Assembly (NCBI GenBank): GCA_963734845.1
Contig: CAVTIS010000018.1
Span: forward strand, 2,482-66,481
Source: an uncultured delta proteobacterium
Lineage (GTDB): Bacteria > Desulfobacterota > Binatia > Binatales > Binataceae
DNA: 64,000 nucleotides
Direction: 5' to 3'
Part shown: one piece after another, positions 966 through 23,141 of the stretch
Position numbering within the stretch: the stretch's first letter is position 1
How the letters are laid out: each line of letters starts with the position of its first letter
Notes under the pieces: generated by a model
What the model saw: the letters and a program-made list of their open reading frames with translations, nothing else
What the model was told of the DNA's origin: nothing
The model's database searches: none
Position numbers and translations under genes: made by a program

Positions 966-1843
966 TGGCGAAGCCGCAACGCGTCGTTACCGATTCGATG
1001 ATCGGGCTGAAACTGCCCGACTTCGCGCGCCACTCCGATCGCGTCGCCACCGTGCTCGGGCACAATCCGGGTCCGTTCACCGGCCCCGGCACCAACACCT
1101 ACATCGTTGGCGTGGGGCGCAGGCCTCTGCTGCTCGATACCGGCGCCGGCGTCCCGGTGTACGAAGAATTGCTGCCGCATGCGCTCAAGGCGGTCAGTGC
1201 CACGGGCGAGCTCGAACGCGTGGTCTGCACGCACGCACACGGCGACCATATCGGCGGCATCCCCCAGGTCTATCGCCGCTTCGGCGAACTGGAAGTGCTC
1301 AAGAAGCCGTGGCCGGGCAAGGACGAAGCCGCAGGCGCGCCGATTAGCGCGATCGAGGACGGTGCGATAGTCAGGACCGAGGGCGCGACGCTGCGCGCGA
1401 TCCATACGCCGGGCCATGCGCCCGACCATCTTTGCTACTACCTGGAGGAGGAAAGGGCGCTGTTTACGGGCGACGTGGTGCTGGGCGCGGGCACTACGGT
1501 GATTCCCGATGACACGGGCGATCTGTGGCAGTACATGGCGTCGCTCCGGCGACTGCTCGAACTCGACGCGGCGCTGATTTACCCGGCGCACGGCCCGGTG
1601 ATCCGCAATGCGCGTCGGAAGATCGAGGAATACATCGCGCATCGCGAACTGCGCGAGCGCCAGGTGCTCGAGGCGCTGGCCGGCGCCGAGCCGCTTGATC
1701 CGATGCAGATCGTCAAAAAGATTTACGTTGATGTGCCCGAGTATTTGCACGTCGCGGCCTCCAATTCAGTGCGCTCGCATCTAAAAAAGCTCCGCAACGA
1801 AGGACGCGTGGTCGAGCATGAGAGCCGCTGGAGCCTCAACTAG
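965..1843 (+). CDS. MBL-fold metallo-hydrolase
   Basis: THAHGDH metal-binding motif and beta-lactamase fold pattern. Its ATG overlaps the coaX TGA (tgATG), so the two are translationally coupled. Confidence 0.8.
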   Translation: MAKPQRVVTDSMIGLKLPDFARHSDRVATVLGHNPGPFTGPGTNTYIVGVGRRPLLLDTGAGVPVYEELLPHALKAVSATGELERVVCTHAHGDHIGGIPQVYRRFGELEVLKKPWPGKDEAAGAPISAIEDGAIVRTEGATLRAIHTPGHAPDHLCYYLEEERALFTGDVVLGAGTTVIPDDTGDLWQYMASLRRLLELDAALIYPAHGPVIRNARRKIEEYIAHRELRERQVLEALAGAEPLDPMQIVKKIYVDVPEYLHVAASNSVRSHLKKLRNEGRVVEHESRWSLN

Positions 1844-1913
1844 ACGGCCGCGCCGGCCGCGCGTGCGCCGTGGCGGGAAATTATCGACGGATTTACCTGC
1901 CTCCGTGTCGGCG

Positions 1914-3569
1914 ATGCGGTCCGCGATAGCCCCGGCGCTGGCGGCCGGGCTTATCGCGCTCTGCACGATAAGCCCGGCCGCCTTCGCCCAGGACGATGCA
2001 CCCGTCGGCCCGGCCGCGACGATTGGATGGATCGGGGCTGCGCGCGCAGCCGCGGCGCGCGCAGCCGCTGCGCGAGCCGCGCCGCCGCTGCAAGCCGCTC
2101 CCGCCGATGAAGTAGCCACGGCGCCGGCTGCGGCGCCGCCCGTCGCCGCCGCGCCAATCAGAGTGGAAGCCAGGCTGTCGACCGCGGCGCCGGCCGCGCA
2201 GCCGCCGCTGGCGGCCGCGGCGCCAGCCAGAGTAGAGGCCAGGCTGCCGGCTGCGACGTCCTTCCTGCCACCACCGGCTCCGGCCACCCTCGCTCCCGCC
2301 GATGAAGTAGCCCCGGCGCCGGCTGCAGCGCCTGAAAGAGAAAAAACCAAGCTGCCGGCGGCGGCGCCCCAAGCGCCCGCCGCCGCGCCGTCCGCCGCTC
2401 CCGCGCCGGTCGAGGAAGAAGCCGCGTTGCGGGCCCTCGCGCCCGTCGCACCGCTGCCGGCGTCGGCTGAGACGGACGAGGCGCCCGTCGGCCCGGCCGC
2501 CACGATTGGCGCGCTCGCGGTCGCGCATGCTGCTGCGGTCCCCGAGACAGCTCCGGCAGCGGCATCCGCCGCCGCCCCAACCGAAGAGGAAGTCACGTTG
2601 GTCGCGGCGGACCCTGGCGCGACACCAGCGCCGCCCGCCGACGCACCTGCGTCCGCGGCGCCGTCCGCAGGCGTCTCAGCGAGTGGCGATGGGCCGTCCG
2701 CCTCCGGAGGGGCTGCCACACCGGCCGCTCCAGAGGCTGCCGCCGCCACGCCCACGCCGGCTGCGGCGCCAGCGGCGCCCGAGAGCGGCCCCCGGACGTT
2801 TCTCATCGACGACGGCGCACCGCCCGGCGCCACGCCGTCCAAAGGGACTCCGGCGACGCCGCCGGCCGCGCCCGATTCCGATGCGTCCCCGGCGACGGCT
2901 GCCGCGCCGCCGGCCGATGCGTCGACTCCGATCAACAATGCTCCGGCAGGTCAAGAGCGGACCGTAAGGCCCGAGGAAGCTCCGTCGGGAACCACGATCA
3001 TCCCCACGGCGGCACAGCAGCAATCGCTCGAGCCCACGACGGGCGCCGCCTCTCAGGGCTCGCAGGTCATCAATTACGAAGCGAACCAGGAGATGCCGCT
3101 CAACGAGCCGCAGTTGCACAGCCTCCAGGAATTCATGAACGAGGGCGTCAATACCTCGCCGCTTGGAGTTGAGTTGCAGGAAGGCGCGCGGCAGACGAAA
3201 AACGGCCGCGAAGTCGATGGCCTGCTGGTGGTCGCCTTGGAGCCCGGCAGTCCCGCCGAGCGCGCAGGCGTGCAGGCGGGCCACCGCGCGGCCCACGACG
3301 TCCTCGAGGGCGCGGCCGTGGCGGCGTCGCTGGTGTTTCCGCCGGCGGTGCTGGCCGTGCCCGTGATCGAAACCATCCAACTCGGCGAGAACTACGATCT
3401 GATCATCGGAATCGACGGCAATCGGGTCACCAATTTCATGGATTTCCAGGATCAGTTGCGCGACGCGCGGCCGGGCGAGACCGTCTACCTGAACATCCTG
3501 CGCGGCGGCAAACGTCTCCAGATACCGGTCGAGATGCCGGCGCCGAGCTCCGCCAAGCTGCAACCGTAG
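1914..3569 (+). CDS. Secreted Ala/Pro-rich protein with C-terminal PDZ domain
   Basis: ATG at 1914 gives signal peptide MRSAIAPALAAGLIALCTISPAAFA. About 400 aa of low-complexity A/P/E sequence with internal repeats. C-terminal PDZ-like region GLLVVALEPGSPAERAGVQAGH...IIGIDGNRV. Confidence 0.6.
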   Translation: MRSAIAPALAAGLIALCTISPAAFAQDDAPVGPAATIGWIGAARAAAARAAAARAAPPLQAAPADEVATAPAAAPPVAAAPIRVEARLSTAAPAAQPPLAAAAPARVEARLPAATSFLPPPAPATLAPADEVAPAPAAAPEREKTKLPAAAPQAPAAAPSAAPAPVEEEAALRALAPVAPLPASAETDEAPVGPAATIGALAVAHAAAVPETAPAAASAAAPTEEEVTLVAADPGATPAPPADAPASAAPSAGVSASGDGPSASGGAATPAAPEAAAATPTPAAAPAAPESGPRTFLIDDGAPPGATPSKGTPATPPAAPDSDASPATAAAPPADASTPINNAPAGQERTVRPEEAPSGTTIIPTAAQQQSLEPTTGAASQGSQVINYEANQEMPLNEPQLHSLQEFMNEGVNTSPLGVELQEGARQTKNGREVDGLLVVALEPGSPAERAGVQAGHRAAHDVLEGAAVAASLVFPPAVLAVPVIETIQLGENYDLIIGIDGNRVTNFMDFQDQLRDARPGETVYLNILRGGKRLQIPVEMPAPSSAKLQP

Positions 3570-4835: not shown

Positions 4836-6161
4836 TTAGTAATAATCGACCGGATCGATCTGCCGCTTCGCGCCGTACCAGAACAGCATGTTCTCGGTCA
4901 GCCCCTGCCAGGTGAACTTGTTCGGCGGCAGCAGCAGGCGCTTGAACATCGATTTGAACGAGTAGAATTCCTTGGTGCAGCGCCATACCCCTTCTTCGAC
5001 CTGCTGCGGCGACAGCTTGTTGGGCACGAACATGCAGCGGAAGTTGTTGGTGTACATGTCGGCGTCGGGGATGATGACGCGGCCTTCCTGTTCGAGCTTG
5101 GTGCGCATCGGCGTGCCCTTGCGCGGGGTGACCGTGTTGAAGAACGCCTCGGGCGCCCTGACCTCGTGAAGAAAGGCTAGGGTGTCGTCGAAAATCTGCG
5201 GATGGTCTTCCTCAAGGCCGAAGAGGAAGTTGAGCGAGTAGTAGATTCCATAGTGCTCCAGGCGCTTGAGCAGTTTCTTGTAGTCCTTGGTGTGGTTCTG
5301 GATCTTGCTCATCGAGAGCAGGCTGTCCTGGCTAATCGATTCCACGCCGATATTGACGTGGAACACGCCGGCCTGCGCCGCGAGGTCGAGCAGGTCCTCA
5401 TCATGGTTGGAATTGATGGTCCACAGGCACGAGAACTTGATGTTGAGCGGAATCAGCGCGCGGAACAGTTCGCGCGCGAACTTGTGCTTGCCGGTTATCT
5501 GGTCGTCGATGAACTGGAAGCGGCGAAAGCCGGTGACCGCGATGACCTGCTTGATTTCCTCGACGATGTCCTCGATCGGCCGCGTGCGATAGCTGCCCTC
5601 ATAGAAGACCGGAATTTCGCAGAACGAGCAGCGATACGGACATCCGCGGCTCGCCTGCACGGGCACCGCCTTGAACAGGTAGCGGTTGAGCTTGAGCAGT
5701 TCGTGACGCGGGCGCGGCAGGTTCTTCAGGTCGTGCAGCTTGTCGGCCTTGTAGATGCGCTTGAGCTTGCCGTCCTGCCAGTCGCGCAGAAGGGGCTCCC
5801 ATACCAGGTCGGCCTCGCCCTGGACCACGGCGTCGGCGTGCTTGAGCGCCTCCTCGGTCTGGAGCGTGGCGTGGAAACCGCCCATCACGACCGGGATTCC
5901 GCGCTTGCGAAACTCATCGCCGAGCTGGTAGGCGCGCAGCGAGGCGCCGATGGTGGTGGTCATGCCGACCAGGTCCCAGCCGCCGTCGAAGTCGAGTTCT
6001 TCCAACCGCTCATCGCAGAGCGTCACGTCAAAGTCATCTGGCGTCAGTCCCGCCAGCAGCGGGATCATCAAACCCATGATCAGGCGCCAGCGGGTTTTAT
6101 GCGGCGTGCCGTCCAGATGGATGGTCGTCGGTTGTACCAGCAGGATTCGCGGTTTCTTCAC
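4836..6161 (-). CDS. B12-binding radical SAM protein (class B, methyltransferase-like)
   Basis: N-terminal cobalamin-binding domain (RILLVQP...VVMGGFHAT) and radical [11 protein letters not shown] motif. GTG start with AGGAGG RBS. GTGA start/stop overlap with the upstream gene. Confidence 0.8.
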
Positions 6162-7351
6162 ACTGCCTCCTGGCGATGCCGCGTTTGCGCGGGCCGCCGT
6201 TGTAGGTCGCTTTGCCGGCCGCCGCGATGGGTGGTCATCCACCACATAACGAAGGCAAAGATGTAAGTGCCAAATGCCGTGCCCCAGGCGAAATAATTAA
6301 TCCGGCCGATCAGCGCCAGCACCACCAGCAGGTACGCGAAATCGCGCCCGCTCACCCGTTCCACCTGCGCGATGAACTGCTCGGCACGCTCGCCGTTGAC
6401 GCGCGTCGCGCGCCAGGTTGTGAGCGCGCACAACCCGAAGCCGACCAGTAAGACGGCGAACAGGTAGATGTAGGCCCGGCTGCCGCTCGCCCGATAGCAC
6501 CCTGTCATGATACCGGCGAAGAGCGCGACGTGCACCAGGTTGTCGGTCGTCACGTCAAGCCGCGCGCCGAAACGCGACTCGGTCATCTTGAGCCGCGCAA
6601 GCTCGCCGTCGACGCCGTCGAAGGTCACCGAAGCCAGGAACATTAGCGCCGCAATCAGGCGCGGCCAGTAGTCCGGAAAACTGAACAGCCACGCGCTTAC
6701 CAATCCGAAAGCCGTGTTGGCGAGTGTAACCTGGTTGGGCGTGATAGCGGTCCGCGCAAGGCGCAAACTGATTCGCCATGAGAGCCGCCGATCGACCCAT
6801 CGCGCCATCAGCGCGTCCTTGTCGGCGCTCTCGCGGCGCAACTCGCACGCGAGGCGGCGCTCGGCCTCCTGGATGTCCGTCGGCCGTCCATCAAGCGCGA
6901 AGGGCAGCTGCCCGCTCGGGCTGAGCTGCGAGGCCGCGGCACCCCAATCCTCGATCAGCCGAGCAAGCGGCCCCGCCGCAAGACTGCCGCCGCTCGCTGC
7001 GTCGGTGCTCCGGAGGTTGACCACCTCGCCCGGTCGGGCCGCCTGAGTGTCGAGCAACCCGCGCAACTGCGAGGCCGCCAGCACCAGATTTCCTCTAAAC
7101 GCTATACAGGGCGCGTCGTGGGGCACTTGCTCAAGGACCTGTGCAAATGAACCGACCAAATTGACCTCGGAATGATCGCGGAATGATCCCAAAGAAGCGC
7201 GCACGTCGCCGTCGCCGGCCGCACCGGTCTCGATAAAGAACCGCTTCACGCCCGCGCGTTGACAAATAAGCATCAGGCGCTCCAGCAGGGATCGCCCGAA
7301 GATCAAATTGCCGGCGCGGGCCGAAATCTCGATTAGAGCTGTATCAATCAA
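6158..7351 (-). CDS. Bifunctional NTP-transferase-like / CDP-alcohol phosphatidyltransferase membrane protein (IPCT/DIPPS-like architecture)
   Basis: C-terminal half has the CDP-OH-P transferase signature [28 protein letters not shown] (D-G-x2-A-R...G-x3-D-x3-D) and several TM helices. N-terminal about 170 aa resemble a degenerate nucleotidyltransferase fold. TTG start. Confidence 0.7.
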
Positions 7352-7353
7352 AT

Positions 7354-7377
7354 AAAGCCTTGTTGAATAAAGGCTTT
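7354..7377. promoter_or_regulatory. Perfect 8-bp inverted repeat AAAGCCTT-n8-AAGGCTTT abutting the start codon of the minus-strand fusion gene
   Basis: Seen directly in the sequence. Candidate operator or 5'-UTR hairpin in the divergent promoter region 7352-7550. Confidence 0.35.
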
Positions 7378-7550
7378 TAGACTAATTGGAGACCAGAGTC
7401 AACGAACTGACCGTGCGGTCTGTCCGCTCGGTCACCCCTGCGCCAGCCCGCTGCCTGTTCATAACTCTTAACTTTCACGCAACCTTGCCGATTCAGTTCT
7501 TAACGGTCTCATTTGTAGAGGCCCAATGCGAGGGCTGATAAGCTGGCCCC

Positions 7551-8300
7551 GTGGCCAGTCCGACCCGGGCGATTTTATTCGACTTCGGCGGCACGCTCGA
7601 CCATCCACATCATTGGTTGGACCGTTTCGTGCGCCATTACCATGCCGCCGGCTTACGGCTTAGCCGTGCCGAGCTCGACGTGGCGTATTCCCATGGCACC
7701 CGCACTGCCTACCAGGCTGGTGATGAACTGCATCACCACAGCCTGCGCGAGCTGGTGCAGCATCTCGTCGCTCACCAATTCGACCATCTACATCGCCACG
7801 GACCCGACAGCGTTCGCGGGCATCTCACGGGCCTCGGGGGCGAACGCGATAACCTCGCCGATCGTATCGCGGCCGGCTTCGCCGAAGAATCGGCCGAAGG
7901 GCTCGCGCGCAGCCGCGCCCTGCTCAAGGAACTGTCGCACGACTTCAAACTTGGCGTGGTTTCCAATTTTTACGGCAACCTGCAAGTGGTCCTGTTCGAG
8001 GCCGGCATCCGGGAACTCATCCAGGTCGCGATCGATTCCAAGCACATGCGCGTCTTCAAACCTGACGAACGTATCTTCGTCGCCGCGCTCAAGGTGCTCG
8101 ACCTGCCGCACAACCAGGTCGCGATGGTGGGGGACTCGCTGCACAAGGATTGCGCACCTGCGCGAAAACTCGGCATGCGCTCGATCTGGCTGCGCGGACA
8201 TCCGGCGGGTGGCGGCGAGCATCCGCAGGCGAGCGAGGAAGCGGCGCTCGCCGACCATACGATCGGCGCGCTCGATGAACTGAGGAACCTCAAATGGTAG
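7551..8300 (+). CDS. HAD-superfamily hydrolase (subfamily IA-like phosphatase)
   Basis: Motif I ILFDFGGTLD, motif III K, motif IV VGDSLHKD. GTG start. Confidence 0.75.
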   Translation: MASPTRAILFDFGGTLDHPHHWLDRFVRHYHAAGLRLSRAELDVAYSHGTRTAYQAGDELHHHSLRELVQHLVAHQFDHLHRHGPDSVRGHLTGLGGERDNLADRIAAGFAEESAEGLARSRALLKELSHDFKLGVVSNFYGNLQVVLFEAGIRELIQVAIDSKHMRVFKPDERIFVAALKVLDLPHNQVAMVGDSLHKDCAPARKLGMRSIWLRGHPAGGGEHPQASEEAALADHTIGALDELRNLKW

Positions 8301-9049
8301 CCGGACCTGCGACAGCCGGATTTCGCGGGGCGATTATTGCAGCCGGCCGCGGCGAACGCCTGCGTGGCGCGGTCGACGACCTGCCCAAGCCGTTGGTCGA
8401 GCTTGGCGGCGAGACGATGCTTGTGCGGCAGGCGCGGATGTTGCACGAGGTGGGGGCAGACACCGTCGTGGCGCTGGTCAACTCGGAGACCGCCGGGCTT
8501 ATCGCGGCCCGCGCTGTGCGGATTCCGCCGTGGATGAAACTCAAGGCTCGCGATACGCCGAGTTCGATGGAATCGCTATTCACGCTGGGCGAGCATCTGC
8601 GCGGCGCCCATCGTTTTTTGCTTGCCACGGTTGACGCGGTGGCTGAGGCCTCTGAGCTCCGTCGATTCGCCGCACGTGCGCTGGAACTGACCGGCGGCGC
8701 GGGAGCACGCTTCGACGGCGCGCTCGCGGTGGTGCGATGGCGCGGCGACAAGCGGCCGCTGTTCGCCGAGGTCGCGCCCGACGGCGCGATCGCGGCGTTG
8801 GGCGAGCGCCAGTGCGCGACCGTCACAGCAGGCTTCTATTACTTGCCCGCGGCGATTTTCGATCTTGCCGACCGCGCGCGCGCTGAGCGGCTGGACGCGA
8901 TGCGCAAGCTGCTCGCGATGGCGATCGCCAGTGGAATGCGCCTTGCCGCGGTCGAGCTTGAGACCACGATCGACGTCGACGAATCGGCGGACCTGGCTGC
9001 CGCGCGCGCGATGATCGCCGGCGGTGACGCCGGCCGGAGCCGTGGCTGA
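8294..9049 (+). CDS. Nucleotidyltransferase (sugar/alcohol-phosphate cytidylyl/guanylyl-transferase family)
   Basis: AIIAAGRGERLRG...PKPLVELGGETML G-loop typical of the NTP_transferase fold. Its ATG overlaps the HAD stop by 7 nt. Confidence 0.75.
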   Translation: MVAGPATAGFRGAIIAAGRGERLRGAVDDLPKPLVELGGETMLVRQARMLHEVGADTVVALVNSETAGLIAARAVRIPPWMKLKARDTPSSMESLFTLGEHLRGAHRFLLATVDAVAEASELRRFAARALELTGGAGARFDGALAVVRWRGDKRPLFAEVAPDGAIAALGERQCATVTAGFYYLPAAIFDLADRARAERLDAMRKLLAMAIASGMRLAAVELETTIDVDESADLAAARAMIAGGDAGRSRG

Positions 9050-9051
9050 CG

Positions 9052-9888
9052 ATGCGCGCGCTAGGGGTTTATCGCGAGCCCGAGTTCTCGCCGGGCAAGG
9101 TCGAGCACGACGCTGCAATTCTCGACGCGGTGATGGCCGAGCTCAAGCGCCAGGGGCTTGAAATCTCCGTGATGAGCGCGGCCGGCTTCGTTGCCGATCC
9201 GCTCGTCAGCGCCGACCTGGTGCTCGCGATGTGCCAAGGCGAGCGCGCGCTGGGCCGCCTGGTAGCGCTCGAACAGCAGGGTGCGGTCGCGGTCAATTCG
9301 GCGCTCGCGATCCGCAACTGCTACCGCGACCTACTGTGCGCCGGCCTCGTACATGCCGGCGTGCCGGTGCCGACCGGCGCGCTGGTCCGTACCGGTTCGC
9401 GCCCGCCGGACCTGACGCCGCTCGGCGTGCTTGACCTAGACTCTCCGATGTTCGTCAAGCGCGGTGACCTGCATGCGCTTGCGCCCGACGACGTTCAGCG
9501 GGTAGAAAGCCGTGGCGCGCTGCGCTCGGCGCTTAACGGGATGGCCGAGCGCGGAGTGCCGGTCGCCTACGTGCAGCAGGCGGTCGAGGGCAGGGTGGTA
9601 AAGTTTTACGGGGTCAGCGGCGGCGAGTACTTCGCGGCGCTGGACGAGGACGGAGGCGAGGGATCGCTGTCCGAGCAGGTGCGGCTCGATCTAGCCCGCG
9701 CCGCCGCGGCGGCCGCCGCCACGCTCGGTCTGGAGGCGTGGGGTGGCGACGCGGTTATCGACGGCGAAAGTTTCATGATGGTCGATTTCAACGACTGGCC
9801 GAGCTTCAGCCGAGTGCGCGAGGCTGCCGCGCGCGCGATTGCGCGGCGCTGCCTGATGCTCGCGCGTCGGCCGCGCCAGAGCGCCTGA
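9052..9888 (+). CDS. ATP-grasp fold protein (RimK/ITPK1-like)
   Basis: VVKFYGV...GGDAVIDGESFMMVDFNDWPSFS resembles ATP-grasp C-terminal nucleotide-binding strands. ATG sits 2 nt after the previous stop. Confidence 0.5.
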   Translation: MRALGVYREPEFSPGKVEHDAAILDAVMAELKRQGLEISVMSAAGFVADPLVSADLVLAMCQGERALGRLVALEQQGAVAVNSALAIRNCYRDLLCAGLVHAGVPVPTGALVRTGSRPPDLTPLGVLDLDSPMFVKRGDLHALAPDDVQRVESRGALRSALNGMAERGVPVAYVQQAVEGRVVKFYGVSGGEYFAALDEDGGEGSLSEQVRLDLARAAAAAAATLGLEAWGGDAVIDGESFMMVDFNDWPSFSRVREAAARAIARRCLMLARRPRQSA

Positions 9889-9924
9889 GCGCTATTTCCC
9901 AGGAGGGCCCTCGCGGGCCGTAGG

Positions 9925-11421
9925 ATGAGCAAACCGCAAACGCCAATGCCGCGAACCGGCGGCGCGTCGAAAACCGCAGGTGCGTCGAAGGCCGGCAATG
10001 GATCGGCAACCGCCAACGGTCCGAAGGCTTCCAATGGATCTGTCAGCGAAGCGAACCCTGCGCGCGGGCCCGGCCTCCAGCCGAAAATCTCCACCGCCGT
10101 GCCTGGACCGAACTCGCGCGCGCTGTTCGCCGACGAGCAGAGCCATATCGCGCCCGGCCGCCAGCGTATCTCGCTGCTCGCCGGCCTCGCGTTCGACCAT
10201 GGCGAGGGCGCGACGCTCACTGATGTCGACGGCAACGTGTACGTTGATTTTTTCGCCGGCGTCGCAGTTGCGAGCCTCGGCCACGGCCATCCGGCACTCG
10301 CGCAAGCGCTCGCGCATCAGGCCTCGCGGCTCATCGTCGGCACCTTCGCCACGCCCGAGCGCGCCGAGGCCTTCAGGATGCTCGGCGAGGCCGCGCCCGC
10401 CGGCCTCAATCGCGCTCATCTATATAGTGGCGGCGCCGAGGCGGTCGAGGCTGCGCTCCGGCTCGCGCGATCGAAGACCAAGCGGCACGAAGTGCTGAGC
10501 TTCTGGGGCGGCTTTCATGGCAAGACCGGCGGCGTGATCGGGCTCATCGGGGACGAATCCAAGCAGGGCTACGGTCCGCTACCCGGCGGCCAGTACGTCG
10601 TGCCTTATGCCGACTGCTATCGATGCCCGTTCAAGCTGGAATATCCCGAGTGCGGAATGTACTGCGTCGATTTCGCGCGCCAGCAGCTCAAACACAGCTC
10701 CGCCGGCGCGCTGGCCGCCGTGATTGTCGAGCCGATGCAGGGGACGGCGGGCAACGTGATTCCGCCCGACGACTACATGCCCGCAGTAAAGCAACTCGCA
10801 CACGAGCATGGCGCGATGCTCATCGCAGACGAAATGATCACCGGCTTCGGCCGCACCGGCCGGATGTGGGGAGTCGAGCACAGCGGCGTCGCGCCTGACA
10901 TCATGACGGTGGGCAAGGGGATGGGCTCAGGCTTTCCGGTCTCTGGGGTGCTGCTCAGCGACGAATTGGGAAAGAGCGAGCCGTTTGGCAAACCGAGCGC
11001 GTCGTCGTCGAGTTACGGTGGCAATCCGCTGGCCGCGGTGGCGGTCGCCGAGACGCTACGCACGATCGAGCGCGAAGGGCTGGTCGAAAACTCGGCCGTG
11101 GTCGGCGCGTTCATGCTCGAGCGCCTGATGCGGCTCAAAGAGAAGTACGAATTCGTCGGTGACGTGCGCGGCAGGGGTCTGATGATCGGGCTTGACCTGG
11201 TGTGCGATCGCAAGACCAAAGAGCTGCTCGGCCGTTCAGTGACTGAAGCCATCTTCACCGAGGCGCTCAGGCGGGGCCTGCTGGTGATGGGCTATTTTCC
11301 GCGGATGCGGATCAATCCGCCGCTGGTAATCACGCGCGAACAGGCCGCCGCGGGCGTCGAGATTCTCGACGAGGTTTTCGCCCACGTTCGCGATCATCTC
11401 GACTGGCGCAACGCTCCCTGA
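9925..11421 (+). CDS. Class III PLP-dependent aminotransferase (omega-aminotransferase family) with low-complexity N-terminal extension
   Basis: GHGHPAL, EPMQGTAGNVIPP, DEMITGFGRTG, PLP-lysine in MTVGKGMGSG. About 60 aa Ala/Ser/Gly-rich N-terminus. Confidence 0.85.
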   Translation: MSKPQTPMPRTGGASKTAGASKAGNGSATANGPKASNGSVSEANPARGPGLQPKISTAVPGPNSRALFADEQSHIAPGRQRISLLAGLAFDHGEGATLTDVDGNVYVDFFAGVAVASLGHGHPALAQALAHQASRLIVGTFATPERAEAFRMLGEAAPAGLNRAHLYSGGAEAVEAALRLARSKTKRHEVLSFWGGFHGKTGGVIGLIGDESKQGYGPLPGGQYVVPYADCYRCPFKLEYPECGMYCVDFARQQLKHSSAGALAAVIVEPMQGTAGNVIPPDDYMPAVKQLAHEHGAMLIADEMITGFGRTGRMWGVEHSGVAPDIMTVGKGMGSGFPVSGVLLSDELGKSEPFGKPSASSSSYGGNPLAAVAVAETLRTIEREGLVENSAVVGAFMLERLMRLKEKYEFVGDVRGRGLMIGLDLVCDRKTKELLGRSVTEAIFTEALRRGLLVMGYFPRMRINPPLVITREQAAAGVEILDEVFAHVRDHLDWRNAP

Positions 11422-11464: not shown

Positions 11465-12232
11465 TCACTTCGACGCCAGCACCTTACCCGAGGATGTGTC
11501 GATATGAATGATCCAGAACGCGGTCGCGTCTTCCTGGCTGATCATCGCGACCACGCCGACGCTAGGTGCGAAAAAGTAGTACGCCGCGTCTTTCGTTTCG
11601 GCTGGACCCACTTTGCCCGTACACTTCAGTCGTAACAGGACTGCTTCGTAGGTGCCGGCGGGCACGGTCACTTTATAAGTGCCCACATAGGTGTAGGCGC
11701 CGTTCAGCGATCCCGAGTATTCCTGGTCCGTCGGATCGTCCAGCGGGATCACGGCGACCTGTTGCGTGTAAGATCGCGTCTCGCCCGGCTTCATGCCCTT
11801 GAGCACGAATGGATTGGCCGGCGTGGTTATCACCACCACGCCCTCGCCCGTGTCGGTTACCGAAGGCATCATCAGATCGCCGTCGACCGTCTGATGGACA
11901 AATCCCGACAGGGTGGGCGAAAACTGAAAGCGCCAGGCCGACCTGCCATTGGAGCGCCTGGCCTTTGAGAGGCCAAGCCGCTGCGTCTTCCCGCCATTAG
12001 GTCCGGCGGTCACGTGGTAGGTCAGGACCTGCGCGCGCAGTGGAAGATAAGTGGAAGTATCTTCGATCGGCTTGCTGGGCAGCGCCTGACCGACGATGCC
12101 CGTACCAAGCTCGGTGGTTATTTTTTGTTGGTCCTCGGGCGGTAACGGTAACACGGGGTCGCCGGCCCACGCCGAACCTGCGGCCAGCAGTAGCAATGCG
12201 AGCGTTACAACCATGAATGTTCGCGTCACCAT
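11465..12232 (-). CDS. Secreted hypothetical protein
   Basis: ATG (complement of 12230-12232) gives signal peptide MVTRTFMVVTLALLLLAAGSAWA, with a GAGGA RBS. Co-oriented downstream of the sulfatase. Confidence 0.5.
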   Translation of the reverse strand: MVTRTFMVVTLALLLLAAGSAWAGDPVLPLPPEDQQKITTELGTGIVGQALPSKPIEDTSTYLPLRAQVLTYHVTAGPNGGKTQRLGLSKARRSNGRSAWRFQFSPTLSGFVHQTVDGDLMMPSVTDTGEGVVVITTPANPFVLKGMKPGETRSYTQQVAVIPLDDPTDQEYSGSLNGAYTYVGTYKVTVPAGTYEAVLLRLKCTGKVGPAETKDAAYYFFAPSVGVVAMISQEDATAFWIIHIDTSSGKVLASK

Positions 12233-12320
12233 ACTATCCTCATCCGGCGAGACGACTACGTCGCTGAACTCGCGCACGGCGGGCGGCCCCAAGGGCCGCC
12301 CGCCGCAATCGCAGATCGGT

Positions 12321-14006
12321 TTATTGGCCTTCGTGCTCTTTGATAGCTTCTTCGATCTTGGCCTTGATGGCTGACAGGTTGAAGGACGCCGGCGCTTGCA
12401 TCGGCGGGTACTCGATAGCCGTCTGCGCAAGCTTGCCCACGTACTGCTGCACCATCACGAAGCGCCAGAACTCGCGCGCATAGAAGTCGTTCACGTAACC
12501 TCCGCCGGAATCGTTCAAGGTCTGGCCTCGCGTAGCAGGCGTGCGCTCGAACGGATCCTGCCGGAGGTTCACGATGGTCGGCATGTCGGTGGTGACCTTT
12601 TCTCCGGGCCAGCCGTAGGGCTGCTGGAAGAACTGGAATTTGAAGTCATCGATGCGCAGCGCTCCGAGGTGCGGTCCGCCGAAGTAGAAGATTTCGTGAC
12701 GTCTGGACGGTCCCTTGCCGGTCAGCAGATCCATCTGGTTATAGCCGTCAAGATGATTTTTGTATTCCCGGCCTCCCAGCGTCACCCCTTTCAGGAGTTG
12801 ATCGGTGATCTCGGAATTGCCGGCAGCGGCCGCCAGCGTGGGCAACCAGTCGAGGCCAGAGAAGATGCCATTCTCGACGGCACCGGGTTTAACGTGTCCT
12901 GGCCAACGGATAATCGCCGGCACGCGGAACCCGCCCTCGAAGACTGTGCCCTTGGTCGCCTTGAACGGCGTCATGCCGCCGTCGGGCCAGGTGAAGACTT
13001 CGGCGCCGTTGTCGGTGGTGAAGATAACGATGGTGTTGTCGGCCTCGCCGATATCCTCGATGTGCTGCAAAAGGGCGCCGACGCTGTCATCCATCTGCGC
13101 CATCCCGGCTTCTTCGATGTTGTAGTTGTTGGTCGAGTTCATCATCGCCTGGTACTTCGGCGGGATGTAGCTGAAGACGTGCATGCGAGTGGTGTTATGC
13201 CAGATGAAGAACGGCTTGCCGTCCTTCTTGGCTTTGTCCATGAAGCCCTTGGAATGCTCGACCAGCACATTGTCGAAAGTTTCCATGTCGTACTTGGCTT
13301 TGCGGCCTTCCTGCCAGTTCTGCATGTCCTTCATGTTGGGGAATGGCGCGAGCGGTCCCTCATCCACGATTTTCTGCTTGCCGACCTTGCCCCAGCGCGG
13401 CATCACGGTTGAGTCATCGTCATTCGCCGCCCAGCAGTGAGTGAGGTTGCGGGGCCCGGTCTTGTCTATCCAGCTCTGCGGGTAGTCGAACCAATAAGGG
13501 TCCGACATCGCGTCGAGGTGGTACAAATAGCCGAAGAATTCGTCAAAGCCGTGTGCGCACGGCAGATATTTGTTCATGTCCCCCAGATGGTTCTTGCCGA
13601 ATTGCCCGGTTTCGTAGCCCTGCGCCTTGAGCACGGTGGCGAGGGTCACTGCCTGATCCGGCAATCCTACGTCAGCGCCGGCCTGGCCCACGGTCGTCAA
13701 CCCGGTGCGGATCGGCAACTCGCCGGTGATGAAATTGGCGCGGCCCGCGGTGCAGCTCGCTTCGGCGTAATAGTCAGTGAAACGCATGCCCTGGGCGGCC
13801 AGCTTGTCGAGGTTCGGCGTCTTGCCGGACATGATTCCCTGGTGGTACGCGCCGATATTGAACCAGCCGACGTCGTCGCCCATGATTACGAGGATGTTGG
13901 GCTTCTTTTCCTGCGCCAGTGCAGGAGATCCGGCGACGTAAATCGCGGCGCCGAGCAGGATAGCCACTGCGGCTAACCCACGCCATTTGTAGCCTGATGT
14001 TTTCAT
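12321..14006 (-). CDS. Arylsulfatase-family sulfatase (Cys-type, formylglycine-dependent)
   Basis: Sulfatase signature CTAGRANFITG (C-x-A-x-R), NILVIMGDDVGW, GKNHLG. ATG (complement of 14004-14006) with GGAGGG RBS gives signal peptide MKTSGYKWRGLAAVAILLGAAIYVAGSPALA. Confidence 0.85.
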   Translation of the reverse strand: MKTSGYKWRGLAAVAILLGAAIYVAGSPALAQEKKPNILVIMGDDVGWFNIGAYHQGIMSGKTPNLDKLAAQGMRFTDYYAEASCTAGRANFITGELPIRTGLTTVGQAGADVGLPDQAVTLATVLKAQGYETGQFGKNHLGDMNKYLPCAHGFDEFFGYLYHLDAMSDPYWFDYPQSWIDKTGPRNLTHCWAANDDDSTVMPRWGKVGKQKIVDEGPLAPFPNMKDMQNWQEGRKAKYDMETFDNVLVEHSKGFMDKAKKDGKPFFIWHNTTRMHVFSYIPPKYQAMMNSTNNYNIEEAGMAQMDDSVGALLQHIEDIGEADNTIVIFTTDNGAEVFTWPDGGMTPFKATKGTVFEGGFRVPAIIRWPGHVKPGAVENGIFSGLDWLPTLAAAAGNSEITDQLLKGVTLGGREYKNHLDGYNQMDLLTGKGPSRRHEIFYFGGPHLGALRIDDFKFQFFQQPYGWPGEKVTTDMPTIVNLRQDPFERTPATRGQTLNDSGGGYVNDFYAREFWRFVMVQQYVGKLAQTAIEYPPMQAPASFNLSAIKAKIEEAIKEHEGQ

Positions 14007-14275
14007 TGCGATACACCCTCCAGCTGCGATTTCATTTATGACTATGTGACCGATGCGCACCGCTCTTATTCGCATGCGGCCGCTGCGCCGTTGCCGGCAA
14101 CCAAAAGTTTTGTCGGGCCTCCCCGACGCGGCGATCAGTACCACTCAGCCGCGCGAGGCAACAATTGGACCTTAGTCCGATATGCTGCCGGGAGTTTTAC
14201 TGTACTAACATCGACGCGTAGACTGGCCGGAGGCGAATCGAACCGCGATGAAAAATCACTTACCAAGAGTTGGCG

Positions 14276-14752
14276 ATGGCTGAAGATGCTGGAAACCGCG
14301 GGCTGTTCTGCGATCTTGCGGGGACGTTGGTGAAGATGGACGACACTCGCCAGCTGCCGCTTGGCCCCGACGGAAAAATCATCGTCGAATTGCTGCCCGG
14401 CGTAGTCGAAAAGCTGTGCCCGATTCGCGACCATCTGATCTTTGTCGTCACCAACCAGGCCGGTATCGCGCGCGGGCGGCTAAGGATCGAACAGGTCGAG
14501 GCCGCGATCGCCGAGCTCGACCGCCAGCTCGGCGACATCCTGACCGGATGGCAAATCTGTCCGCACGACGACCCCGACCACTGCGCCTGCCGCAAGCCCA
14601 AGGGCGGGATGCTGACTGAGTTGGGTGCGACCTATGGCGTGGACATGGCGGGCTCGACGATGGTTGGCGATCAGGAAGTGGACGCCGCGGCGGCGCGCGC
14701 GGCGGGTATCGGCCATTTCGTCTTTGCGCACGACTTCTTCGTCTGGAAATAA
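14276..14752 (+). CDS. HAD-IIIA phosphatase, GmhB/HisB-N-like (D,D-heptose-1,7-bisphosphate phosphatase family) with atypical DxA motif I
   Basis: VVTNQAGIARG, zinc-loop CPHDDPDHCACRKPKGGML, MVGDQEVD. Motif I reads LFCDLAGTL (DxA instead of DxD). Confidence 0.65.
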   Translation: MAEDAGNRGLFCDLAGTLVKMDDTRQLPLGPDGKIIVELLPGVVEKLCPIRDHLIFVVTNQAGIARGRLRIEQVEAAIAELDRQLGDILTGWQICPHDDPDHCACRKPKGGMLTELGATYGVDMAGSTMVGDQEVDAAAARAAGIGHFVFAHDFFVWK

Positions 14753-14983: not shown

Positions 14984-15841
14984 ATGAAAATCGGATTGCT
15001 GATGCCATTTACCGAGGATACCGCCAACCCGGCCGAGTTCTGCCGCGCCGCCGAGGCCCTAGGTTTCGAATCGATGTGGGTGCCGGAGCATCCGATTCTC
15101 CCAGCCAACCCCAAGACTCCCTTCCCGGCGGGCGGACCGATTCCGCCGGTCTACGCGCACATGGGTGACCAGTTCGTCGCGCTCAGCATGGCTGCCGCCG
15201 CCACCAAAAAATTGAAGCTCGCCACTGGTATCTGTCTGGTGCCCGAGCACAACCCGATGATCCTGGCCAAGCAGATCGGCAGCCTCGATAATTTCTCGGG
15301 CGGCCGCTTCATCTTCGGCATCGGCGCCGGATGGCTGCGCGAGGAAACCGAACTGCTCGGCGGTGACTTTCCGCATCGCTGGACGCAGACCGCCGAGTAC
15401 GTCGCCGCGATGCGCGCGCTGTGGACCAAGGGCGAAGCGTCGTTCGAGGGCAAGTACGTCAAGTTTCCCGCAATCCGTTCGTATCCGCGCCCCGCGCAGC
15501 CGGCCGGGCCGCCGGTACTGCTCGGCAGCCGCGACAAGAACGCGCTCAAACGCGTCGCCAAGTGGGGCGACGGATGGTGCCCGATTCGGATCAGCGTCGA
15601 CGAGATGAAAAACGCGACCGCCGAATTGCGCGAGGAGTGCCACAAGGCCGGCCGCGACTACGCCAGGCTCGATCTCACCGTGATGGGCTCGGTCGGTGAC
15701 GAGCGCGCCAAGGCCCAGGAGGAACTCGGTAGGTACGCGGCGCTCGGGGTCGGTCGCTTTGTGATCGCGCTGGTCGCCGGCGCGTTGGGACCGGACAAGT
15801 ACGCTCCGGAACTTGAGCGGCTCGCCAAGGCGTACATCTGA
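14984..15841 (+). CDS. LLM-class (luciferase-like) flavin/F420-dependent oxidoreductase
   Basis: Bacterial-luciferase TIM-barrel pattern (GFESMWVPEH, LATGICLVPEHNP, GRFIFGIGAGW). AGGAGAG RBS. Confidence 0.75.
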   Translation: MKIGLLMPFTEDTANPAEFCRAAEALGFESMWVPEHPILPANPKTPFPAGGPIPPVYAHMGDQFVALSMAAAATKKLKLATGICLVPEHNPMILAKQIGSLDNFSGGRFIFGIGAGWLREETELLGGDFPHRWTQTAEYVAAMRALWTKGEASFEGKYVKFPAIRSYPRPAQPAGPPVLLGSRDKNALKRVAKWGDGWCPIRISVDEMKNATAELREECHKAGRDYARLDLTVMGSVGDERAKAQEELGRYAALGVGRFVIALVAGALGPDKYAPELERLAKAYI

Positions 15842-17765: not shown

Positions 17766-17805
17766 CCCTGCTTTTCAGGAACTGGACCGGGGGGAAACTA
17801 CTGAG

Positions 17806-18807: not shown

Positions 18808-18896
18808 CCGTGGATGCCGCGCCGCGTACTGGGCGCGGCCGCGCCCATGGGCAGTACGAAGACGACCTTGCGATAAGGACAGAGTAGAGAGCCTCG

Positions 18897-21007: not shown

Positions 21008-21108
21008 GGCTTCGCGCCCCGAGGGTATGACGGCACGAGGTGGCGAGGGTGTTGAGAAGTCCGAATCCAGCGCTCCGATCTAAATAACCGGCAGGAATCT
21101 CGAATCCT

Positions 21109-23124: not shown

Positions 23125-23141
23125 CGCTCAAGGGGCAAAGC

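Follow-up and report, generated by a model that had tools for sequence, protein, structure and literature searches.

A Binataceae gene block that may use CDP activation to build a polar head group from inositol

Results

Gene content and conservation of the block

Within the window, the 64-kb stretch of DNA analysed here, which comes from an uncultured soil bacterium of the Binataceae, six open reading frames (ORFs) occupy positions 4836-11421 as two divergent arrays, and further plus-strand genes follow to the right. The six genes and their coupling had been set out in an earlier note on this DNA, and the ORFs, the start-stop overlap, the divergent promoter region and the plus-strand spacing all agree with it.

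4836..6161, minus strand: B12-binding radical SAM protein (Pfam Radical_SAM, weak B12-binding, DUF4070), translationally coupled to the fusion
6158..7351, minus strand: AF2299-like CDP-alcohol phosphotransferase (the fusion), with a degenerate cytidylyltransferase-like N-domain (~residues 1-160) and then a 6-helix membrane domain
7352..7550: divergent intergenic region of 199 bp between the fusion gene and the HAD operon, from ORF coordinates
7551..8300, plus strand: HAD-IA hydrolase of a distinct subfamily (Pfam Hydrolase/HAD_2); motif I DxGGT, no Asp+2
8294..9049, plus strand: stand-alone, IPCT-like NTP transferase (Pfam NTP_transf_3); intact AAGxGxRL...PKPL
9052..9888, plus strand: orphan ATP-grasp-fold protein, the module marker; proposed inositol/inosamine (phosphate) kinase, alternatively a ligase
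9925..11421, plus strand: class-III (PLP) aminotransferase (Pfam Aminotran_3, 327 bits), orthologous throughout the module's amino variant
11465..14144, minus strand: two-gene insertion (hypothetical protein of 321 aa and a sulfatase, Pfam Sulfatase) that interrupts the plus-strand array
14270..14752, plus strand: HAD-IIIA small phosphatase, GmhB/histidinol-phosphatase-like (Pfam Hydrolase_like/PNK3P)
14984..15841, plus strand: luciferase-like oxidoreductase (Pfam Bac_luciferase), a common neighbour in Binataceae only
15893..16927, plus strand: GFO/IDH/MocA NAD-dependent dehydrogenase (Pfam GFO_IDH_MocA), the aminotransferase partner and proposed maker of a keto intermediate

Pfam searches of the six ORFs returned CDP-OH_P_transf, Radical_SAM with weak B12-binding, HAD, NTP_transf_3 and Aminotran_3. 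On the minus strand, the stop codon of the fusion and the GTG start of the radical SAM gene overlap as GTGA (6161..6158), with GGAGG 7 nt upstream. On the plus strand, the HAD and NTP transferase genes overlap by 7 bp, and gaps of 2 bp and 36 bp separate the NTP transferase from the ATP-grasp gene and the ATP-grasp gene from the aminotransferase. A sigma-70 consensus scan of 7352..7550 gave no significant match.

The synteny of the block is kept in ~27 Binataceae-like loci, down to ~50% identity, and thus the arrangement is no accident of chance; the co-occurrence that the earlier note called for is present. Seven genes are syntenic across Binataceae loci, the seventh being the HAD-IIIA phosphatase (HAD-SF-IIIA, 67 bits against a cut-off of 44.6; GmhB, 84 bits, under its cut-off), which lies directly 3' of the aminotransferase in L002-L009, L019-L022 and L027-L049. 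In the window it is displaced: the insertion, restricted to the window and a 97%-identical relative (L001), parts the aminotransferase from the HAD-IIIA and GFO genes and is outside the system. The boundaries 4836-11421 are therefore incomplete at the right, where the HAD-IIIA phosphatase and the GFO dehydrogenase, both missed when the pathway was described as six genes, are pathway members. The luciferase-like gene lies 3' of the HAD-IIIA gene in L020, L028, L031, L032, L035, L037-39, L042, L046 and L055, and none was seen in the distant loci described below; its membership is uncertain.

The radical SAM gene is probably not part of the pathway

At the left, the boundaries are probably over-inclusive. 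The radical SAM protein had been likened to HpnP and HpnR, but its scores against HpnP, HpnR and HpnJ are 45-74 bits against cut-offs of 577-650, and every NCBIfam equivalog falls far under its cut-off. Its identity among loci is 87-100% where its neighbours reach 42-77%, with nucleotide identities of 94/97/63% at codon positions 1/2/3. Orthologs of 52-73% identity occur on their own, in unrelated surroundings, in Geotalea, Desulfobacca, Nitrospirota and other Binatia, and distant modules lack the gene save for weak 25% and 43% matches in L060 and L092. Because of this far higher conservation, its stand-alone occurrence and its absence from distant clusters, the radical SAM protein probably lies outside the head-group pathway, and we treat its gene as co-transcribed yet functionally separate. 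A rival reading keeps the six-gene pathway as first stated: the radical SAM protein would methylate or rearrange the head group or its lipid as an integral tailoring enzyme, and the ATP-grasp protein would be an amide ligase acylating the amine that the aminotransferase introduces. Besides the radical SAM results, the presence of the ATP-grasp gene in gut loci without an aminotransferase speaks against this scheme, which we consider very unlikely.

Probable roles: transfer by the fusion, activation by the stand-alone enzyme

The fusion carries the full CDP-alcohol signature that had been reported for it (D-x2-DG-x2-AR-x8-G-x3-D-x3-D), beginning at residue 245, and scores 49 bits against Pfam CDP-OH_P_transf. 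The NCBIfam IPCT/DIPPS model matches the fusion just in the DIPPS half, at 76 bits where 580 are required, and the top PDB sequence match of the fusion is AF2299 (4o6m, 62 bits). An AF2 model (pLDDT 81) aligned full-length to AF2299 in Foldseek (E 4.5e-10) and also to IPCT-DIPPS 4mnd (TM 0.61). The nearest relatives are thus AF2299, DIPPS and PIP synthases, and the proposed IPCT/DIPPS-like fusion stands as an architecture, more exactly an AF2299-like one. Its N-domain is another matter: no NTP-transferase HMM in Pfam or NCBIfam matches it, and the GxGxR...K signature is absent from 19/19 aligned family members. The earlier view of this domain as nucleotidyltransferase-like survives in the predicted fold, despite the HMM failure.

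Lacking the catalytic signature in its N-domain, the fusion is unlikely to be the cytidylyltransferase. The stand-alone NTP transferase, in contrast, keeps the signature, matches the IPCT half of NF041135 and aligns full-length, yet weakly, to IPCT in the PDB (2xme, 4mnd); it is probably the cytidylyltransferase. CDP-alcohol-dependent phosphodiester chemistry, as first suggested for the block, is supported. In the module HAD, 25 of 27 sequences, taken from Bacteroidales-type to Binataceae loci, have FD(F/Y)GGT as motif I, and the remaining two have DFGG. Since it lacks the Asp+2 acid/base residue, this HAD may be other than a simple phosphatase.

The core genes recur beside inositol and lipid genes

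Many metagenomic loci carry, at 30-40% identity, a core set of DxGGT HAD, IPCT-like cytidylyltransferase, orphan ATP-grasp protein and CDP-alcohol phosphotransferase. Beside it lie genes for myo-inositol-1-phosphate synthase (MIPS) and an LPG-synthase-like membrane protein and, in some cases, Mla lipid-transport genes. Among 28 distant loci, each 8 kb or longer, we found the HAD in 26, the NTP transferase in 26, a CDP-alcohol transferase in 25, LPG_synthase_TM in 23, MIPS in 13, the aminotransferase in 10 and GFO in 9. Gene orders include MlaF-MlaD-ATPgrasp-AT3-CDPOH-GFO-LPGs-HAD-MIPS (L082), and L070 holds MlaE, MlaF and MlaD. The core proteins are also fused to one another: NTP transferase with ATP-grasp in six representative clusters (one from Planctomycetota), HAD, NTP transferase and ATP-grasp in P0451 (Elusimicrobiota), and ATP-grasp with CDP-alcohol transferase in P0489. 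Fusion proteins and conserved neighbourhoods thus link the four functionally, and in relatives the module is linked to MIPS, LPG-synthase-like and Mla genes. One Binataceae metagenome-assembled genome has an Ino1-type MIPS 4.9 kb from the block. Against an inositol-lipid role, the window contains neither MIPS nor an LPG-synthase-like gene, and most Binataceae loci have neither of the two within 10 kb.

A human-gut version (L074, NTP-ATPgrasp-CDPOH-LPGs-HAD-MFS-x-MIPS), in which the CDP-alcohol transferase is longer and different from the Binataceae fusion, matches the "alternative inositol-lipid cluster" proposed but not confirmed for Bacteroides vulgatus (PMC9246714). That NTP transferase, CDP-alcohol transferase and HAD core near MIPS was proposed for B. 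vulgatus and Prevotella, whose strains with the cluster produce plain phosphoinositol dihydroceramide (PMC9246714); the ATP-grasp gene, present in our gut version, is never mentioned there. Rhodothermus marinus has been shown to make lipid from CDP-inositol by a MIPS-IPCT-BEPIS route (cited in PMC4587543), and its IPCT and BEPIS are an experimental precedent for CDP-inositol as head-group donor to a lipid alcohol. The earlier view that the combination was undescribed is thus only half right.

The fusion falls in the AF2299/DIPPS subclass, whose solved members use soluble donors and acceptors and process no lipids, and 6-TM CDP-alcohol transferases are associated with soluble acceptors (PMC4634129). 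These facts speak against a lipid acceptor and suit a compatible solute like di-myo-inositol phosphate (DIP) or diglycerol phosphate, in which the AF2299-like enzyme would join the CDP-alcohol from the NTP transferase to a second soluble alcohol phosphate and a HAD would remove the terminal phosphate. Two phosphatases in the block would fit, MIPS adjacency suits DIP synthesis equally well as lipid synthesis, and no flippase-like or Mla gene adjoins the Binataceae block. However, the LPG-synthase-like gene is tightly linked in 23 of the 28 distant loci, the module sometimes lies inside Mla operons, 60%-identical fusion homologs have MlaA, HpnI, an LPG-synthase-like gene and a transporter resembling HpnN as neighbours, and the gut version goes together with an inositol sphingolipid (PMC9246714). 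We therefore regard a soluble product as unlikely.

Hopanoid genes lie nearby, as had been noted: HpnH starts 6.4 kb past the aminotransferase, and the plus-strand array runs co-directionally into TetR-HpnH-FPPS-ZnADH-SHC-Dxr-HpnC-HpnE. The same run-in occurs in divergent Binataceae lineages (L028, L031, L046, L055; ATP-grasp identity down to 53-55%), and L016, from an unrelated lineage, has a fusion homolog of 60% identity within MlaA-HpnI-fusion-LPGs...HpnN-like, where HpnI scores 401 bits (cut-off 310). The AF2299-like enzyme might then move phospho-inositol or phospho-inosamine from the CDP donor to a side-chain hydroxyl of bacteriohopanetetrol (BHT), giving a phospho-cyclitol bacteriohopanepolyol (BHP). 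We know of no phosphodiester-linked BHP and of no hopanoid production in gut Bacteroidales. Amino-cyclitol-bearing BHPs do exist, as BHT cyclitol ether (PMC13459092). On the other hand, many Binataceae loci (L019-L022, L032, L037-39) have no hpn genes within 7-10 kb, a TetR gene stands between the two arrays, most distant modules, gut Bacteroidales included, show no hpn genes in the locus, and neither the HpnL-like nor the HpnN-like neighbour in L016 reaches its cut-off. Hopanoid tailoring is not favoured and seems rather improbable.

An amine-adding variant and a candidate kinase

The aminotransferase reaches no NCBIfam cut-off and so, as suspected, is no ordinary named enzyme. In distant loci it lies directly 3' of the ATP-grasp gene and is 48-63% identical, against only 30-43% for ATP-grasp. 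Aminotransferase and GFO co-occur: all nine GFO-bearing distant loci (at least 8 kb) have both, and the two are adjacent in L056, L060, L064, L070, L077, L081, L082, L087 and L088. The window GFO is 28% identical to that of L082 (E 4e-32) and scores 72 bits against NCBIfam IolG, under its cut-off of 355. Since both enzymes fall under every equivalog cut-off, inositol as their substrate is read from context only.

For the ATP-grasp protein, a kinase is more likely than a ligase. Its Mg site is DxN, not ExN, the best sub-threshold Pfam E-value falls on Ins134_P3_kin, and a profile search of the PDB brought up no ATP-grasp sequences other than ITPK4 and ITPK1, at a non-significant E ~0.5-1. Gut modules without an aminotransferase still carry the gene, so it cannot need the amine for its role, and their lipid product shows no extra mass. 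These matches, the Mg site and the non-aminated gut clusters together suggest a kinase.

The commonest sub-threshold Pfam match in the ATP-grasp family is ATPgrasp_ST, 'sugar-transfer associated' (34/118 members), and GFO with an aminotransferase is the usual route to 3-amino sugars, as in NtdC/NtdA and WbpB/WbpE. The module might accordingly decorate a cell-surface glycan or polymer (capsule, LPS, teichoic-acid-like chain), not bulk membrane lipid, with phospho-inositol or phospho-amino-cyclitol, the LPG-synthase-like protein serving export; in Bacteroides, loss of inositol synthesis altered capsule expression (PMC9246714). Yet the 33 clustered loci share no recurrent genes for glycosyltransferases, Wzx/Wzy or ABC polysaccharide export, and MIPS and Mla linkage indicates lipids. 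We consider this reading very unlikely.

Discussion

We put at about even the chance that this is how Binataceae encode a widespread bacterial module which works through a CDP-activated intermediate to make a polar head group derived from inositol and joined by a phosphodiester link. Most likely, CTP-activated inositol is attached through a phosphate bridge to a membrane lipid; in the variant with dehydrogenase and aminotransferase, inositol is probably converted to amino-inositol before activation. While the domain and fold identities of the module proteins are established, we infer, rather than demonstrate, the identity of the substrate, a kinase role for the ATP-grasp protein, the order of steps and the acceptor.

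In the proposed pathway, MIPS encoded elsewhere in the genome would supply inositol phosphate, from which a HAD phosphatase would release free inositol. The GFO dehydrogenase would then oxidize one ring hydroxyl to a ketone, which the aminotransferase would replace by an amine to yield an amino-cyclitol of the inosamine type. This would be phosphorylated by the ATP-grasp protein and turned into a CDP-alcohol by the IPCT-like nucleotidyltransferase. The AF2299-like membrane enzyme would pass the phospho-alcohol on to a hydroxyl of the acceptor, which is most likely a membrane lipid, and the second HAD would cut off a leftover phosphate. A glycerolipid, a hopanoid and a soluble alcohol are all candidates for this acceptor.

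To our knowledge no amino-inositol phospholipid has been described, and a literature search for one found none, which counts against this reading. On balance we read the Binataceae block as a new and probably amine-adding form of a gene set that is widespread in bacteria.

A conserved gene block with revised boundaries

The layout described in the earlier note, six open reading frames in two divergent, tightly coupled arrays, was borne out. The window has ~63% G+C, and protein identities of 97-99% assign it to an uncultured Candidatus Binataceae bacterium. On the minus strand, the TGA of the fusion, an AF2299-like CDP-alcohol phosphotransferase with a cytidylyltransferase-like N-domain, overlaps the GTG of the radical SAM gene (rSAM) in a GTGA (6161..6158) preceded by a GGAGG. 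A 199-bp spacer separates the fusion from the divergent HAD gene, and neighbouring plus-strand genes either overlap or are 2-36 bp apart. Profile HMMs (Pfam, NCBIfam) confirmed the CDP-OH_P_transf, Radical_SAM, HAD, NTP_transf_3 and Aminotran_3 assignments. A scan for sigma-70 promoters and terminators gave results at or below shuffle expectation.

Genes of the block and of its continuation to the right (coordinates, strand, assignment; the first six entries are open reading frames)
4836..6161, minus: rSAM; Pfam Radical_SAM and a weak B12-binding match
6158..7351, minus: fusion, a two-domain membrane protein of 397 aa; Pfam CDP-OH_P_transf
7551..8300, plus: HAD; Pfam Hydrolase, 59 bits
8294..9049, plus: NTP-transferase; Pfam NTP_transf_3
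9052..9888, plus: ATP-grasp protein, 278 aa
9925..11421, plus: class-III aminotransferase; Pfam Aminotran_3
11465..14144, minus: insertion with a 321-aa hypothetical protein (no Pfam hit) and a sulfatase
14270..14752, plus: HAD-IIIA phosphatase, 158 aa, the seventh gene; Pfam and NCBIfam
15893..16927, plus: GFO/IDH/MocA dehydrogenase (GFO); Pfam, family level

Window proteins were mapped first to 22 related loci and afterwards to 80 from metagenomes. The same gene order recurred in ~27 Binataceae-like loci, across which the fusion drops to ~50% identity and the HAD to 42-49%. In nearly all of these loci the HAD-IIIA gene directly follows the aminotransferase; in the window the two are separated by the insertion at 11465..14144, which was seen only here and in a 97%-identical locus (L001). 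Downstream, many lineages carry a luciferase-like gene and then the GFO dehydrogenase. The pathway limits drawn previously (4836-11421) need correcting: rSAM probably lies outside the pathway, and the dehydrogenase and the second phosphatase belong inside. When contigs were scanned with one protein as the seed, the hits were confined to close relatives among Binataceae plus a single locus from Acidiferrales.

Elsewhere in the window, a PDZ-domain protein (1818..3569, plus strand) carries ~380 aa of low-complexity, Ala/Pro-rich sequence at its N-terminal end; the underlying DNA has 77% G+C and contains short tandem repeats. The protein is far longer than its counterparts of 309-423 aa in related loci.

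The radical SAM gene is an outlier

The earlier note had counted rSAM as a pathway member and likened it to HpnP or HpnR; neither proposal agrees with our comparisons. Among Binataceae lineages (including L020, L031, L037, L039 and L046), rSAM proteins share 87-100% identity, against 42-77% for their neighbours. By codon position (1/2/3), nucleotide identity is 94/97/63% for rSAM versus 63/72/41% for the fusion. Because the third positions have diverged while the first two are nearly identical, the pattern indicates very strong purifying selection, and recent transfer was rejected as its source. Its orthologs share 52-73% identity and are spread over Geotalea, Geobacter, Desulfobacca, Nitrospirota, Elusimicrobia and another Binatia lineage (ortholog loci listed: L023, L024 and L105-L107), and in all four neighbourhoods examined (Geotalea, Desulfobacca, Nitrospirota, Binatia) they stand alone amid unrelated genes. 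The gene is also missing from the distant versions of the module described below.

rSAM scored below every NCBIfam cut-off, the best match being BchE (99 bits vs. 481); HpnR (45 of 650 bits) and HpnJ (74 of 577) were further off, and HpnP lay outside the best 25 families. An identity with lipid radical SAM enzymes of the Mss/Tes type was rejected, as those enzymes are not B12-dependent. The slow evolution, the standalone orthologs, the absence from distant modules and the failure to reach any family cut-off together suggest that rSAM, although co-transcribed with the fusion in Binataceae, is probably functionally independent. It represents an exceptionally constrained orphan B12-radical SAM family, an oddity that merits enzymological study.

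The fusion is a CDP-alcohol phosphotransferase with a degenerate N-domain

The fusion matched Pfam CDP-OH_P_transf (PF01066) at 49.2 bits (threshold 22) and carries, from residue 245, the complete 26-residue motif D-x2-D-G-x2-A-R-x8-G-x3-D-x3-D. The proposal that it resembles IPCT/DIPPS held for this motif and for the predicted fold, and failed for the equivalog score and the N-domain signature. Against the bifunctional IPCT/DIPPS model NF041135, it scored 76.4 bits (cut-off 580) and aligned only with model positions 207-412, the DIPPS half. Its N-domain matched neither NTP_transferase nor NTP_transf_3 in Pfam and failed every NTP-transferase HMM tried (Pfam, NCBIfam), contrary to what the earlier note had expected. 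The GxGxR...K signature is missing from the N-domain of all 19 aligned family members, and a precomputed PF12804 match appeared in 2 of the 120 fusion homologs listed. An active N-domain was also considered for the 430-aa homologs and rejected, since their added length is C-terminal and all lack the N-terminal signature. Ordinary phospholipid synthases fitted poorly (pssA, 27.6 bits, cut-off 107; pgsA, 26.1 bits, cut-off 109), as had been anticipated; the next-best matches were NCBIfam PIP-synthase models at 55-60 bits.

In the AlphaFold2 model (pLDDT 81), a nucleotidyltransferase-like N-domain is packed on a 6-TM CDP-alcohol transferase, which is the fold of IPCT/DIPPS. Foldseek aligned the model full-length with IPCT-DIPPS 4mnd (434 columns, TMq 0.61) and likewise with AF2299, and the N-domain alone matched KdsB, CobY, IspD and GlmU at E ~1e-3. 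The Archaeoglobus fulgidus proteins AF2299 (PDB 4o6m/4o6n/4q7c) and IPCT/DIPPS (4mnd) were the best matches in both sequence and fold, sharing with the fusion the cytidylyltransferase-like cytosolic domain, the 6-TM transferase and the full catalytic motif. However, identity is only 17-20%, and the N-domain of the fusion lacks the nucleotide-binding signature, making bifunctionality unlikely. The model and alignments thus point to an AF2299-like architecture with an N-domain that has probably lost its catalytic activity.

In L016 (7745..19034), a homolog 60% identical to the fusion occurs in the order MlaA-HpnI-fusion-LPG-synthase-like-CopD; next come genes for an HpnN-like RND transporter, a sulfotransferase and a radical SAM protein. 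This lineage is unrelated to Binataceae; one source labels it Bathyarchaeia, and its gene content is bacterial. In the Acidiferrales locus L011, too, a sulfotransferase gene lies before the fusion homolog.

The HAD and the stand-alone nucleotidyltransferase

The stand-alone NTP-transferase keeps the nucleotidyltransferase signature and aligns end-to-end, if weakly, with IPCT. In relatives it is fused to its pathway partners, which implies a soluble CDP-alcohol.

HAD phosphatases typically have motif I DxDx(T/V), in which Asp+2 is the general acid/base. In the module HADs, motif I is a near-invariant FD(F/Y)GGT(L/I)D..HW (window residues 10-16; HADs of L062-L103): all but one of the 27 sequences read D-x-G-G-T, the exception being D-F-G-G-C in L103, so that Asp+2 is absent throughout. 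Motifs II-IV are conserved. Lacking this residue, the module HAD may be no simple phosphatase, and may act as a phosphotransferase or with unusual kinetics. A HAD subfamily without its Asp+2 catalytic residue is an enzymological oddity worth study in itself.

A wider module with an amino variant

A metagenome scan seeded by the invariant [IV]DxNDWPSF motif recovered 80 loci, and HMMs were built from their neighbour clusters. Counts refer to the 28 distant loci that span 8 kb or more.

Gene families in the 28 distant loci
HAD: 26
NTP-transferase: 26
CDP-alcohol transferase of any kind (CDPOH): 25
LPG_synthase_TM-like membrane protein (LPGs): 23
Myo-inositol-1-phosphate synthase (MIPS): 13
Aminotransferase (AT3): 10
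GFO dehydrogenase: 9, all with an aminotransferase

Pfam-based gene orders illustrate the module: MlaF-MlaD-ATPgrasp-AT3-CDPOH-GFO-LPGs-HAD-MIPS in L082, NTP-MlaE-MlaF-MlaD-ATPgrasp-AT3-CDPOH-GFO-LPGs-HAD-MIPS in L070, (HAD)-NTP-ATPgrasp-AT3-GFO-AF2299like-LPGs in L060 and L056, and NTP-ATPgrasp-CDPOH-LPGs-HAD-MFS-x-MIPS in the gut metagenome locus L074. Since every distant locus with GFO also has the aminotransferase, the pair defines an "amino" variant of the module, and the conserved adjacency of GFO marks the window enzyme (28% identical to that of L082, E 4e-32) as part of the conserved system. A GFO/IDH/MocA dehydrogenase followed by an aminotransferase is the standard route from secondary alcohol to amine in amino-cyclitol and 3-amino-sugar pathways. 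No equivalog model matched either window enzyme. GFO reached 71.6 bits against IolG (TIGR04380, cut-off 355) and is assigned at the GFO/IDH/MocA family level only; the best matches of the aminotransferase were generic class-III families, below cut-offs, with no HpnO among the best 25, and an exact-sequence look-up returned nothing on record. A second, divergent class-III aminotransferase lies just upstream of the HAD in some distant modules, L064 (6267..) and L087 (7088..8380, minus strand).

MIPS occurs within Binataceae as well: an Ino1-type gene in the metagenome-assembled genome of L008 (CAWCMA010000004.1, 17381..18496, minus strand; Pfam Inos-1-P_synth, 120 bits) lies 4.9 kb past the rSAM end of the block and encodes a protein 53% identical to the MIPS of L092, where the order is MIPS-HAD-NTP-ATPgrasp-LPGs.

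The ATP-grasp family

A full-library profile search placed the ATP-grasp protein in a family of 1206 clusters at 50% identity that has no Pfam model. The family shows the three-domain fold, the conserved ATP-binding Lys and the acidic-x-Asn metal site of the superfamily. NTP_transf_3 is fused to ATP-grasp in six clusters, one from Planctomycetota; P0451 (Elusimicrobiota) joins HAD, NTP_transf_3 and ATP-grasp in the order seen in the window, and P0489 joins ATP-grasp to an AF2299-like CDP-alcohol transferase.

Among 118 members scanned, Ins134_P3_kin (PF05770) matched 20 below threshold and gave the lowest E-value of any sub-threshold Pfam family (3e-5), in competition with sub-threshold ATPgrasp_ST (34) and RimK (20). 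The family profile retrieved ITPK4 and ITPK1 as the only ATP-grasp sequences from the PDB, at a non-significant E of 0.56-1.1; phmmer against the PDB found no real match, and Pfam was uninformative on close homologs. The metal site is DxN, as in ATP-grasp inositol phosphate kinases. The gene is present with or without the amino pair, and the gut product is plain phosphoinositol dihydroceramide, so the step adds no mass. This tentatively favours a kinase over a ligase, and the metal site, the sub-threshold Ins134_P3_kin matches and the non-significant ITPK matches point the same way; the competing ATPgrasp_ST and RimK matches speak against it. Ligase families score much like ITPK1 and ITPK4, and the expected substrate here would be inositol, inosamine or a monophosphate, not a polyphosphate.

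Relation to known inositol-lipid and amino-cyclitol systems

The closest solved relatives of the fusion, AF2299 and DIPPS, use soluble substrates (PMC4634129), and these archaeal enzymes make soluble solutes in hyperthermophiles. Another parallel is Rhodothermus marinus, in which a CDP-inositol-dependent lipid pathway, MIPS-IPCT-BEPIS, was demonstrated (Jorge et al. 2015, by the account in PMC4587543). As proposed for our module, a cytidylyltransferase, stand-alone or fused, makes a CDP-cyclitol from which a CDP-alcohol phosphotransferase serves an alcohol acceptor, and relatives of our module likewise carry MIPS in the same operon-like cluster. The module differs in adding the orphan ATP-grasp protein and the DxGGT HAD, and the window variant further adds the dehydrogenase and aminotransferase. 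The window membrane enzyme is of the AF2299 subclass, with a probably dead N-domain. The PIP-synthase route (mycobacterial PgsA1; Bacteroides BT_1523 with the BT_1525 phosphatase) also combines a CDP-alcohol phosphotransferase acting on inositol phosphate with a final phosphatase, but its donor is CDP-diacylglycerol and it needs no soluble cytidylyltransferase.

A further precedent comes from Bacteroides vulgatus and Prevotella, for which a putative "alternative inositol lipid cluster" was proposed whose genes, located near MIPS, encode an NTP transferase, a CDP-alcohol phosphatidyltransferase, a HAD hydrolase and an LPG-synthase-like protein; its function was unconfirmed in 2022 (Heaver et al. 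2022, PMC9246714). The earlier note knew of no description of its gene combination; this novelty claim lapses, because the core with MIPS had already been proposed there. The gut loci recovered with the window ATP-grasp family have the same order and share the DxGGT HAD motif, and we infer from gene content that they are B. vulgatus-like. In them, the ATP-grasp gene lies between NTP and transferase. PMC9246714 mentions no ATP-grasp gene or kinase in the cluster; from the tag numbering, we infer that the gene occupies the gap between BVU_RS13095 (NTP) and BVU_RS13105 (transferase), as in L074. The window NTP, CDP-alcohol transferase and HAD are homologous to those of L074 (tblastn, HMM) and, as in the gut cluster, occur together, but neither MIPS nor an LPG_synthase_TM homolog was found in the 64-kb window. 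The gut version, for its part, lacks the aminotransferase and GFO, and its transferase is longer, has no N-domain and is 24-27% identical over the motif region.

For the amino branch, the scyllo-inosamine steps of streptidine and rhizopine biosynthesis and the kanosamine enzymes NtdC/NtdA/NtdB offer a template, in which a dehydrogenase makes a keto intermediate, an aminotransferase follows, and a kinase or phosphatase acts as well. The module would share the GFO/IDH/MocA keto step, PLP-dependent amination and a kinase or HAD phosphatase. Those pathways differ in using DegT-type aminotransferases and unrelated kinases, and they lead to antibiotics or opines, not to CDP-activated head groups. 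A literature search yielded nothing relevant on inosamine phospholipids or on follow-up of the alternative Bacteroides pathway.

A possible hopanoid connection

The window contains a co-directional hopanoid cluster (17118..31244) of TetR, HpnH, FPP synthase (FPPS), a Zn-dependent alcohol dehydrogenase (ZnADH), squalene-hopene cyclase (SHC), Dxr, HpnC, HpnE, a CruF-like membrane protein and HpnK. The best matches of ZnADH were sub-threshold, to threonine dehydrogenase (142 bits, cut-off 380) and then scyllo-inosose 3-dehydrogenase IolM (126 of 450), and its place between FPPS and SHC is kept in L046 and L055.

The earlier note had argued from this proximity, and further loci make that argument stronger than the window alone would. 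The array leads co-directionally into TetR-HpnH-FPPS-ZnADH-SHC both here and in L028, L031, L046 and L055, and in the unrelated L016 the MlaA-HpnI-fusion-LPGs neighbourhood combines an HpnI above cut-off with the HpnN-like transporter. The argument is not decisive, however: many Binataceae loci have no hpn genes nearby, and most of the distant modules show none in their loci. With HpnO, HpnP, HpnR and HpnJ, the block shares broad families (class-III aminotransferase, B12-radical SAM) and a distance of 6 kb to the hpn cluster, but orthologs of the aminotransferase accompany ATP-grasp and GFO at loci where no hpn genes were seen. We regard a hopanoid acceptor as improbable. The LPG-synthase-like, Mla and MlaA neighbours favour a membrane-lipid acceptor.

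Proposed pathway and implications

Much of what the earlier note observed was right, as was the class of chemistry it proposed; its enzyme roles, together with rSAM membership, block limits and novelty, were not. The conserved MIPS, the IPCT-like enzyme and the inositol-type CDP-alcohol transferases point to inositol-derived chemistry. In the proposed sequence, MIPS would supply inositol phosphate, a HAD would dephosphorylate it, GFO would oxidise the inositol and the aminotransferase would aminate the keto product. The ATP-grasp protein would then phosphorylate the aminated cyclitol, the NTP-transferase would convert it to the CDP-alcohol, the AF2299-like enzyme would hand the phospho-cyclitol to its acceptor, and the second HAD would trim residual phosphate.

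We offer, tentatively and as one possibility, that bacteria of several phyla (Binatota, and other lineages seen only as metagenome contigs) may make a new class of membrane lipids with a phosphodiester-linked amino-inositol (inosamine) head group. The route would run from MIPS through the dehydrogenase, the class-III aminotransferase, a new ATP-grasp cyclitol kinase and the cytidylyltransferase to the CDP-alcohol phosphotransferase, and the same kinase would be the missing step of the alternative pathway in gut Bacteroides and Prevotella. Within this reading, the Binataceae acceptor could even be a bacteriohopanepolyol, carrying the phospho-cyclitol.

An unannotated ATP-grasp family emerges as a constant member of a bacterial CDP-inositol module, including the clusters of abundant human-gut Bacteroidales, in which it had been overlooked. 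The module provides a concrete, testable set of genes for a head group, of a lipid or a solute, without assigned biosynthesis, and could explain some of the unidentified amino-phospholipids in environmental lipidomics.
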